In this document: piece after piece, positions 1 through 1,902 of the stretch
Numbering within the stretch: position 1 is the stretch's first letter
Layout of the letters: every line of letters starts with the position of its first letter
Source: Planctomycetota bacterium
GTDB lineage: Bacteria > Planctomycetota > B15-G4
Assembly: GCA_038212275.1 (NCBI GenBank)
Contig: JBBQUR010000004.1
Coordinates: 1 to 64,000, forward strand
DNA length: 64,000 nt
Direction: 5' to 3'
The notes under the pieces: model-generated
The model's input: only the letters and a program-made list of their open reading frames with translations
Databases searched by the model: none
What the model was told of the DNA's origin: nothing
Made by a program: the position numbers and the translations under genes

Positions 1-141
1 CGCGGTCCGTCAGCCGGACTTGCTCGTGCTCTGGAGCCTCGGAGCGCGACCAGCGGCTGGATAGGAAGAGCCGGATGACGCGAGAGTGTCACGTCCGGTT
101 CCGTGAGAGCCTGAGGGTGAAACTCCCTTGGGCTACTCGAC
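1..141 (+). mobile_element. Group II intron, 3' end (end of intron-encoded protein, domain V 68-101, domain VI ~105-138, 3' splice end AC at 140-141); the rest lies upstream of the window
   Basis: GAGCCGGATGACGCGAGAGTGTCACGTCCGGTTC is a 34-nt domain V with AGC triad and GAGA loop. It is followed by the GAG-AGCC-TGAGGG/CCCTTG-GGCT-A-CTC hairpin with a bulged A (135) 7 nt from the terminal AC. Confidence 0.93.
2..64 (+). CDS. C-terminal fragment of group II intron reverse transcriptase/maturase (5' partial)
   Basis: Frame 2 reads AVRQPDLLVLWSLGARPAAG-stop immediately before domain V. This resembles the P-x-L-F-x-H-W ending of En-less bacterial IEPs. Confidence 0.7.
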   Translation, partial: AVRQPDLLVLWSLGARPAAG

Positions 142-1902
142 CTCGCGCTGGCGCGGGAAGAAGTCGCCGGGGCCGCCAAGCATGCTCTTCGGTTCTTCCT
201 CCCAGGCCACGAGGCCGAGGTTCGCATCCATGCCGTAGCGCATGATCATCGAGCGCGCGATGTCGGTGACCCTGGCGATGTCGTTGGAGGCGCCGGTCGA
301 GACCTCGCCGAAGACCAGTTGCTCGGCCGCGCGTCCGCCGAGCAGCACGGCCATCTTGTCCAGCAACTCCTGGCGCGACATGAGGAAGCGGTCCTCGGTG
401 GGGCGCTGGATGGTGTAGCCCAGCGAGCCGATGCCGCGCGGGATGATGGACACCTTGTGCACCACGTCGCCGCCGGGCAGCGCCTTGCCGACGATCGCAT
501 GGCCCATCTCGTGGTAGGCGGTGACGCGACGCTCGTGCGGATTGAGCAGGCGGTTCTTCTTCTCGAGGCCCGCCACGATGCGCTCGAGACCGCGCGTGAA
601 GTCGTTCATGTTCACGTCGGTGCCGCCGCGCCGTGTCGCCAGCAGCGCCGCCTCGTTCACGAGATTGGCGAGGTCCGCGCCCGTGAAGCCCGGCGTCAGC
701 GCGGCCACCTGCTCGCGATCCACGTCGGGCGCGAGCGTCACGCGACGGAGGTGCACGGAGAGGATCGCGACGCGCGCCACCTTGTCGGGCCGGTCCACGA
801 GGATCTGCCGGTCGAAGCGGCCGGCGCGCAGCAGCGCCGGGTCGAGGATCTCGGGGCGGTTCGTCGCCGCGAGCAACACGACGCCGAGGCTCGGATCGAA
901 GCCGTCCAGTTCCACGAGCAGCTGATTGAGCGTCTGTTCCTTCTCGTCGTGGCCGCCCGACATCGGCCCGATGCCGCGCGCGCGACCCAGGGCGTCCAGC
1001 TCGTCGATGAAGATGATGCACGGCGCCTTGCGGCGCGCCTGCTCGAAGAGGTCGCGCACGCGCGAGGCGCCGACGCCGACGAACATCTCCACGAACTCGC
1101 TGCCGCTGATGGAGAAGAACGGCACGCCGGCCTCGCCCGCGACCGCGCGCGCGAGCAACGTCTTGCCCGTGCCCGGCGGTCCGACGAGCAGGATGCCCTT
1201 GGGCAGCCGCGCGCCGAGGCGCCCGTACGTCGACGGGTCCTTCAGGAAGCCGATGGTTTCCTGCAGCTCTTCCTTGGCCTCGTCCACGCCGGCCACGTCC
1301 TCGAACAGGACCTTCACGCCCTCCTCTGCGTAGATGCGCGCACGGCTCTTGCCCACGCCCATGAGGCCGCCCGCGCCGCCGCCGCCCAGCCCCTGCCGGT
1401 CCGCCATGCGGCGCATCATGACGCTCCACAGCACGAAGAGCAGGATGAGCGGCACGACCAGCCAGAGCAGGTCCGTCAGGAAGGTGTCGCGGACGACGCC
1501 GGTGACCTCCACGCCGTGCTCGCTCAGCAAGTCGGCCAGCGGCATGTCCACGCGCGTGGTCCGGAAGCGCGGCAGCTCGTCGCCCTGCGGCTCCTTCAGG
1601 ACGCCGAGCACTTCGTCCTCACTCACGGTGACCTCGGTGACGCGCCCCTCGCTCACCCATTCCTCGAACTTGCTGTAGGGGATGGGCCGCACGTCGCGCG
1701 AGTCGGTCCACCACGTCCAGAGGTTGGTGAGGATCAACAGGCCGATCAGCAACCACATGAAGTTGAAGCGCGGGATCCGCGGCATCATCAGCGAGCGCGG
1801 CCCCTTGCCCCGGGCCGGTGGCGGGCCGGGCTTCCCCGCGGCGGAGGGCGCGGACCGCGGGTCGTGGCCTCGCTTGTCGTCGACGCGCCGGGGATCGCTC
1901 AT
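133..1902 (-). pseudogene. ftsH: ATP-dependent zinc metalloprotease FtsH, interrupted near the C-terminus by an antisense group II intron
   Basis: Two TM segments, Walker A GPPGTGKT, Walker B IFIDELD, SRH AATNRPEILDPALLRAGRFDR, HEMGH and GASND are all present. The last codons (VE-stop) come from the reverse complement of the intron end, and the usual C-terminal helices are missing. Confidence 0.88.

Follow-up and report, generated by a model that had tools for sequence, protein, structure and literature searches.

Evidence for antisense insertion of an RmInt1-like group II intron into an accessory ftsH gene of a Planctomycetota bacterium

In most descriptions, group II introns of bacteria either avoid functional genes or do them no harm because they splice. 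The subject here is an accessory ftsH gene at the start of a 64,000-nt stretch of a Planctomycetota bacterium genome (positions 1-64000 of contig C4, JBBQUR010000004.1 in assembly GCA_038212275.1; this whole stretch is the window referred to below, and its position 1 is base 1 of contig C4). A multicopy, endonuclease-less, RmInt1-like group II intron of about 1.9 kb is judged, with a probability of about 0.9, to have inserted antisense into the 3′ part of this gene. The locus is a clean case, from a little-studied lineage, of a group II intron acting naturally as an insertional mutagen of a cellular gene.

Several described systems bear comparison with this locus. RmInt1 of S. meliloti (IIB3/class D) has a domain I of the same RF01999 family, an intron-encoded protein (IEP) of ~420 amino acids with only reverse transcriptase (RT) and X domains, and the same layout of intron-binding sites (IBS). 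The likeness extends to a C-tail motif that is mostly kept, an orientation consistent with the lagging strand and the occasional near-cognate insertion in cellular genes that is described for RmInt1 (PMC5894124). The differences are that the targets here are cellular genes and not ISRm2011-2, that the exon-binding sites (EBS) differ, and that two positions of the motif differ. Antisense disruptions made with targetrons have the same permanence, with no splicing out (PMC3898094), whereas targetrons are engineered and the present case is a natural event involving a wild intron with its own IEP. Group II introns in or near housekeeping genes are known from recA of Geobacillus kaustophilus and the groEL operon of Azotobacter vinelandii (via the review PMC4424553). 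Those introns lie in sense and must splice, whereas the ftsH intron is antisense and cannot. The type of event, an ectopic antisense insertion that is not spliceable, is already known; the intron itself is new within a known class, and no new question is opened by it.

Two junctions and one interrupted reading frame

The first 141 nt of the window carry the 3′ end of a group II intron on the + strand, as a sequence-only reading of this DNA had proposed from an IEP C-terminus followed by domains V and VI. The Rfam family RF00029 (Intron_gpII, gathering score 40) matches window 66-141 (+) with 58.1 bits and an E value of 8.1e-09 over model positions 1-77 of 77. The domain V hairpin occupies approximately positions 68-101 and domain VI approximately positions 104-139, and the 3′ splice site follows C141. 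As predicted from the RF00029 match, the 3′ strand of domain VI has an unpaired UA, which gives A135 as the bulged branch point, 7 nt from the 3′ splice site. Upstream of these domains, in frame 2 of the + strand, are the last 20 codons of the IEP and its TAG stop (AVRQPDLLVLWSLGARPAAG*; window 2-64, stop at 62-64), the stop being 3 nt ahead of the domain V match. The frame is that of a paralogous RT/maturase open reading frame (ORF) on contig C12, and the tail in the window differs from the end of that ORF by one residue (P/Q). Domain VI terminates in CTACTCGAC, whose terminal 12 bases, GGGCTACTCGAC, are common to 4/14 related introns. The 141-nt intron end is repeated at C25:1-141 (100% identical) and at C12:748-888 (98.6%); all three copies end in CTACTCGAC and their sequences part at the next base, which places the 3′ boundary at 141/142.

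On the minus strand an ORF of 589 amino acids (133..1902) matches FtsH_ext, AAA (E 5e-46), AAA_lid_3 and positions 2-121 of the 191 positions of Peptidase_M41. By these profile matches, 587 of its codons (window 142-1902) are the 5′ part of an accessory ftsH paralogue in which two transmembrane segments, Walker A and B, the second region of homology and HEMGH are present. The 3′ end of the ORF reads CAG CGC GAG/GTC GAG TAG (QRE-V-E-stop), and in its translation the GTC GAG TAG that closes the frame (window 133-141, minus strand) lies inside the intron. The TAG is the complement of CTA at 133-135, its first base pairing with the predicted branch-point A135. The earlier claims that the junction falls at 141/142 and that V-E-stop is derived from the intron are both borne out by the divergence of the three copies at this point. 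No complete M41 domain is encoded in one frame at this locus, since the frame halts after M41 position 121 plus V-E.

The remainder of the intron is missing from the window and from contig C4 because the assembly breaks at the repeat, and not for a biological reason. The genome is assembled in 40 contigs whose overlaps, where present, are exactly 141 nt, a length typical of de Bruijn assembly with k=141. A search of the whole genome with Peptidase_M41 finds four places, namely the window gene, contigs C9 and C11 and the very end of contig C1. The C11 match is weak and unrelated, and C9 carries the intact main ftsH (M41 1-191, 232 bits). At the end of C1 the profile positions 133-189 are found at C1:370594-370764 (-). 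The ORF there (C1:370582-370755, minus strand) is an ftsH tail of 57 codons plus stop covering M41 positions 136-189, which begins FSEATAREIDVAVRD... (FSEATAREID...) and closes ...GDELPALE-stop. It directly adjoins GTGCGCCACGAACGG, and the sequence that directly follows it on the + strand of C1, GTGCGCCACGAACGGCGC..., is the 5′ end of the intron. This 5′ end, GTGCGCC, occurs at C1:370756 and again at C33:28513, with 97.9% identity between the two over 140 nt, and aligns base for base with the 5′ ends of 14/14 related full-length introns. On C33 and C37 the domain I family RF01999 (group-II-D1D4-2) is matched with 95.8 and 92.6 bits, respectively, and the C1 match, truncated by the contig end, reaches 49.4 bits. 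The in-frame remainder of ftsH and the GUGYG-type 5′ end that the sequence-only reading had expected beyond the window are thus located on C1.

The two parts of the gene also fit each other. Separate alignments of the 587-residue part and the 57-residue tail to ten intact FtsH proteins, of which nine are orthologues in related genomes and one is the C9 paralogue, put the two parts on adjacent residues in 10/10. In L016, for example, the first part extends to residue 635 and the tail starts from 637; the corresponding residues are 591 and 593 in L019, and 620 and 623 in L018. The pieces are continuous in frame, with no sequence lost or duplicated at the intron, and the insertion point follows codon 587 (GAG) and precedes a TTC codon. 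The suggestion that homologues might naturally end at this position fails, as the nine orthologues and the paralogue all read through. Beyond the tail, 88 nt separate its end from the end of a convergent antiporter-like gene on the + strand of C1, and no downstream gene is affected by the insertion.

The setting of the window at a contig end, the 141-nt overlaps and the collapsed state of the intron repeat could also be explained by an assembly artefact, in which an intron end was joined chimerically to ftsH at a repeat while the real gene is intact. This is scarcely credible. Both junctions are found, on separate contigs, each with a piece of ftsH in the correct frame and orientation, and an uninterrupted copy is not found in the 40 contigs, which hold only the two pieces and the C9 paralogue. 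In addition, run X1, which alone among the runs contains the stretch (0.96 of words), yields a 955-nt unitig from another assembler that covers window 112-1066 and crosses 141/142 without a branch at a depth of 22.2. Its unique downstream neighbour unitigs have depths of 22 and 26.3, and the unitig of the intron end has a depth of 71.4, about 3.2 times higher. An exact search with the first 40 nt of the window finds 0 matches among metagenome contigs.

Three points weigh against the insertion as reconstructed here. Approximately 1.6 kb of the ftsH copy of the intron is unassembled and no single contig spans C1 to C4, and their linkage through one intron copy would follow from the two junctions and the reading frame. 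X1 is probably the source sample of the assembly and hence not independent of it. Contigs drop rare variants, and a minority intron-free allele could be hidden. This last point bears on the alternative of a mixed population, in which intron-free ftsH alleles exist beside the assembled variant. Ectopic insertions of RmInt1 are described as polymorphic in natural S. meliloti (PMC5894124), and a 176-nt contig in run X3 (another study, of activated sludge) that agrees with window 142-239 but for 2 differences, and whose remaining 78 nt, upstream of position 142, are not intron, could be a hint of an empty site in a near relative. Against this, the X1 junction unitig is unbranched at full depth, and a mixed population is considered unlikely, with a small chance remaining to it. 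Run X2, run X5 and the rest of X3 yield mostly fragments of ftsH from other organisms with 88-95% likeness, and no weight is given to their depths.

Consequences for the accessory FtsH

The antisense orientation determines what can be made from the interrupted gene. An intron inserted in antisense leaves the complement of its ribozyme in the mRNA and is not spliceable from it (PMC3898094), which agrees with the expectation of the sequence-only reading for the ftsH mRNA. Because the antisense intron stays in the mRNA, translation stops after the two intron-derived codons. The truncated product is without M41 profile positions 122-191 of 191, the last ~30% of the protease domain, a region conserved in all 10 intact homologues compared. 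These features suggest that the truncated FtsH has probably lost its function. What can be held against such a loss is that the zinc-site HEMGH and the ATPase motifs are kept in the truncated protein.

The same retained motifs (Walker A/B, the second region of homology and HEMGH), together with the lack of further lesions in the ORF, are what would be expected if the protein of 587 residues plus V-E were still a working or neofunctionalised protease or ATPase. This alternative is improbable given the removal of a region conserved in 10/10 intact homologues. Moreover, the intact orphan tail points to a recent event and not to a long-kept short form, and the presence of the paralogue in only 9/30 relatives indicates tolerance of its loss.

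Orthologues of the window gene with 63-72% identity are found in 9/30 relatives (10/30 when fragments in G004 are counted), and an FtsH-type match is present in all 30 relatives, weakly in G011. The complete ftsH kept on C9 and this patchy spread mark the window gene as a dispensable paralogue, and the earlier proposal of an insertional truncation of an accessory ftsH is upheld by the tail on C1 and by the distribution of the orthologues. The insertion would accordingly be equivalent to a natural non-conditional knockout of a dispensable ftsH paralogue. It appears to be recent, since the 57-codon tail that it cut off has stayed open and conserved. An accessory status and a patchy distribution are also compatible with a paralogue that was already a decaying pseudogene before the intron arrived. 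Such prior decay is highly improbable, as both parts are open, the 587-codon part is 61-70% and the tail 46-60% identical to the orthologues, and the catalytic motifs are intact. In practice annotators would record a 589-residue 'FtsH' and a stray ORF of 57 residues, with the contig break concealing the disrupted gene.

Intron class and relatives

The domains of the IEP are read from the paralogous copy on C12, as the ftsH copy supplies the last 20 codons alone. The ORF of 269 amino acids at C12:2-808 contains RVT_1 (E 6e-22, with YADD) and GIIM (E 6e-14), which provides the RT ORF that had been called for in following up the sequence-only reading. No endonuclease domain is found in the C12 IEP, for which Pfam gives RVT_1 and GIIM only, with 24 residues after GIIM. 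The length of the intron would by analogy be about 1.9 kb. The parts amount to 554 nt before the IEP start, ~421 codons of IEP and 77 nt after the IEP stop, and the related introns measure 1,861-1,983 nt.

Among species-representative genomes, the nearest IEPs show 51-64% identity and come from scattered taxa (Holophaga, Singulisphaera, Sorangium and many metagenome-assembled genomes), and no near-identical copy of the IEP was found there. The best matches among plasmid records are from S. meliloti and are of two types. The L110 type has an IEP that is 56% identical and is nested in another RT gene. The L124 type has an IEP of 419 amino acids, lies in an IS630-type transposase gene and shows 47% identity over 262 amino acids. 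From its host, the 419-residue IEP and the IS630-type transposase context, L124 is probably RmInt1, a name that no record gives to it. RF01999 is the best member of the Rfam D1-D4 clan for L110 (123 bits), for L124 (118 bits) and for 13/13 other relatives shown. It may therefore stand for class D, as the match of the probable RmInt1 suggests; no statement of which intron class group-II-D1D4-2 represents was found in papers.

The C-terminal tail of the IEP provides a further comparison. Class D proteins are described as having the C-tail motif LX3AX3PXLF[V/A]HW (PMC4615759), and the tail in the window, LGRVAVRQPDLLVLW, can be read as L-GRV-A-VRQ-P-D-L-L-V-L-W, in which L, A, P, L, V and W match. 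Taken together, RF01999, the 47% IEP identity and the partly matching C-tail motif point with good confidence to a class D-like, RmInt1-like (IIB3) intron. The assignment made by the sequence-only reading, of an IEP without an endonuclease domain resembling class D and RmInt1, therefore stands on these features and on the 24 residues after GIIM. Weighing against it are the substitutions F to L and H to L in the motif of the window copy. The IEP comparison behind this class call is by pairwise identity (47% to L124, 56% to L110). At the P of the motif the C12 copy carries Q.

The related introns (L031-L065 and L110, with 5′ junctions near locus positions 2440-2515) appear to have the YADD codons of other group II introns as their main homing target, giving rise to nested introns. 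The endonuclease-less nested relatives in an S. meliloti plasmid (CP140952.1, in L110), Holophaga foetida, Singulisphaera acidiphila and Sorangium, with IEPs of 51-64% identity, share with the intron described here the 5′ end GTGCGCCACGA... and the 3′ end GGGCTACTCGAC. The difference is in the targets: in 11/14 relatives EBS1 is AGUCGUU and the 5′ exon belongs to the RT gene of another intron, against EBS1 UUCGCGG and cellular genes as exons in the present genome. No title among those listed in a literature search reports homing into YADD codons, and a review describes homing into other introns for Methanosarcina only (PMC4424553).

Some further observations concern the nested relatives. The 5′ exon ends in the Y-A-D-D codons of another RT gene (once Y-A-M-D) in 11/14 relatives. 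By Rfam, an outer intron domain I (D1D4-4, -5 or -6) lies upstream of nested relatives, a second domain V lies downstream, or both are present. On the S. meliloti plasmid CP140952.1, intron copies are arranged head to tail.

Target pairing, orientation and other copies

Recognition of the target can be followed by covariation. In an alignment of 15 introns, changes in the domain I loop at nt 267-273 go together with changes in the seven bases that end the 5′ exon, as in L040 (AUACCAC against GTGGTAT) and L051 (CUGCUGA against TCAGCAG), and covariation of EBS1 with the exon is likewise seen in L042, L033 and L031. The relatives that target YADD have EBS1 AGUCGUU or AGUUGUU against exon GACGATT or GATGACT. 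In the C33 copy of the intron, EBS1 is UUCGCGG (nt 267-273) and EBS2 is ACGGA (nt 189-193). With its own 5′ exon TCCGT-G-TCGCGAA these sites pair 7/7 at IBS1 (one G-T) and 5/5 at IBS2, with T at -15. The layout described for RmInt1, IBS2 at -13 to -9 and IBS1 at -7 to -1 (PMC4075523), is the same in the C33 copy.

The assembly lacks the EBS of the ftsH copy, and pairing at the ftsH site is scored with the loops of the paralogous copy on C33. Within the ftsH 5′ exon, TGGCT-T-CCGAGAA, the IBS1 CCGAGAA pairs 6/7 with the C33 EBS1 loop; nowhere else in 553 nt is there a stretch that pairs with the ftsH exon at 6/7 or better. Two features of the site do not favour recognition in the usual manner. 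The exon pairs only 2/5 with the C33 EBS2, and the site has G and not T at -15, a position at which T is described as critical for RmInt1 (PMC4615759). The EBS loops vary between copies, C37 having AUCGCGG and AAGGA. The ftsH site is most plausibly an ectopic, near-cognate target and not a canonical homing site, and ectopic insertions of RmInt1 in oxi1 and another oxidoreductase gene (NAD(P)-oxidoreductase) are precedents for such use (PMC5894124).

Besides the ftsH copy, other copies of the intron are present on C33/C12, C25, C37 and C28, and together with the intact main ftsH on C9 they supply what the sequence-only reading had proposed to look for elsewhere in the genome. The 5′ end on C33 and the 3′ end on C12 belong to one copy, which lies antisense in an LPP20-like lipoprotein gene. 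The pieces of this gene are at C33:28375-28512 and C12:889 to about 2330, both on the minus strand, with a weak LPP20 match on the C12 ORF that runs into the intron. The gene is interrupted 46 codons before its stop, and the C33 flank, which ends ...LARALARLLDEHRPDTLPTLLRARFR-stop, matches the C-termini of LPP20-like homologues in G004 and G012. A pairing of the C33 5′ end with the C25 3′ end is ruled out by the continuation of the C12 LPP20-like ORF in the C33 flank. The C25 3′ end itself lies 290 nt past the stop of a minus-strand methyltransferase gene.

A third copy, without its first ~28 nt, occupies C37:1-685 opposite to an OmpR-type response regulator gene. It abuts profile position 1 of Trans_reg_C, the receiver domain is gone and a histidine kinase gene follows. 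The receiver domain is absent from the contig ends examined (it is on neither C25 nor C28), and the response regulator is probably the third disrupted gene. All three mapped 5′ junctions are inside host genes in antisense orientation (ftsH, the LPP20-like gene and the OmpR-type response regulator gene), and two of the three are 165-263 nt downstream of a co-oriented gene whose transcription, by reading through, could express the intron. On C1 this is the antiporter-like gene, 263 nt upstream of the intron, and read-through from it could transcribe the intron. Between this gene and the intron on C1, 0 sites match the sigma-70-like promoter consensus and 0 the intrinsic terminator consensus.

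The orientation of the copies can be set against the base composition of the contigs. The GC skew of the + strand is positive in 17/18 20-kb windows of C1 and in 11/13 of C4. The sense strand of the intron is G-rich on C1, C4, C33, C25, C12 and C37, with a skew of +0.015 to +0.027 in intron orientation, and a G-rich sense strand suggests the polarity of the lagging-strand template. Several points argue against placing much weight on this polarity. The skew is weak (~0.018-0.02), it partly tracks the strand bias of genes (long ORFs 49 on the + strand vs 30 on the -, and 43 vs 35), and the six junction contigs amount to no more than 3-4 independent loci.

Endonuclease-less introns of the RmInt1 type are described as reverse-splicing into the lagging-strand template, with the nascent strand as primer (PMC4075523, PMC4615759, PMC5894124), and the bias in insertion strand is described as varying by IEP class (PMC8919778). 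In a mechanism of this kind, the intron ribonucleoprotein would reverse-splice into single-stranded lagging-strand template DNA at the replication fork. The nascent strand would then prime reverse transcription at the ftsH site in the style of RmInt1. The direction of the fork, and not that of the gene, would set the orientation of the intron. On this fork model the insertion in ftsH is antisense because ftsH is a head-on gene. Together with the other copies, the locus fits the replication-fork model for endonuclease-less introns. A broader interpretation, in which the lineage has been retargeted to cellular DNA in this genome and behaves as an active, loosely specific, gene-inactivating retrotransposon co-directional with replication, is tentative and on balance doubtful.

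Other group II sequences and a structural RNA gene were also observed in this genome. A truncated 5′ fragment of the intron lies at C28:1-330, in which the IEP stops after codon 23 and unrelated DNA follows. Two unrelated matches to group II domains V/VI lie at C17:96799-96868 (-), with 46.5 bits, and at C36:426-529 (+), with 39.3 bits, the latter below the cut-off. Within the window, a tRNA gene is found at 48422-48496 on the minus strand (Rfam tRNA, 63 bits).

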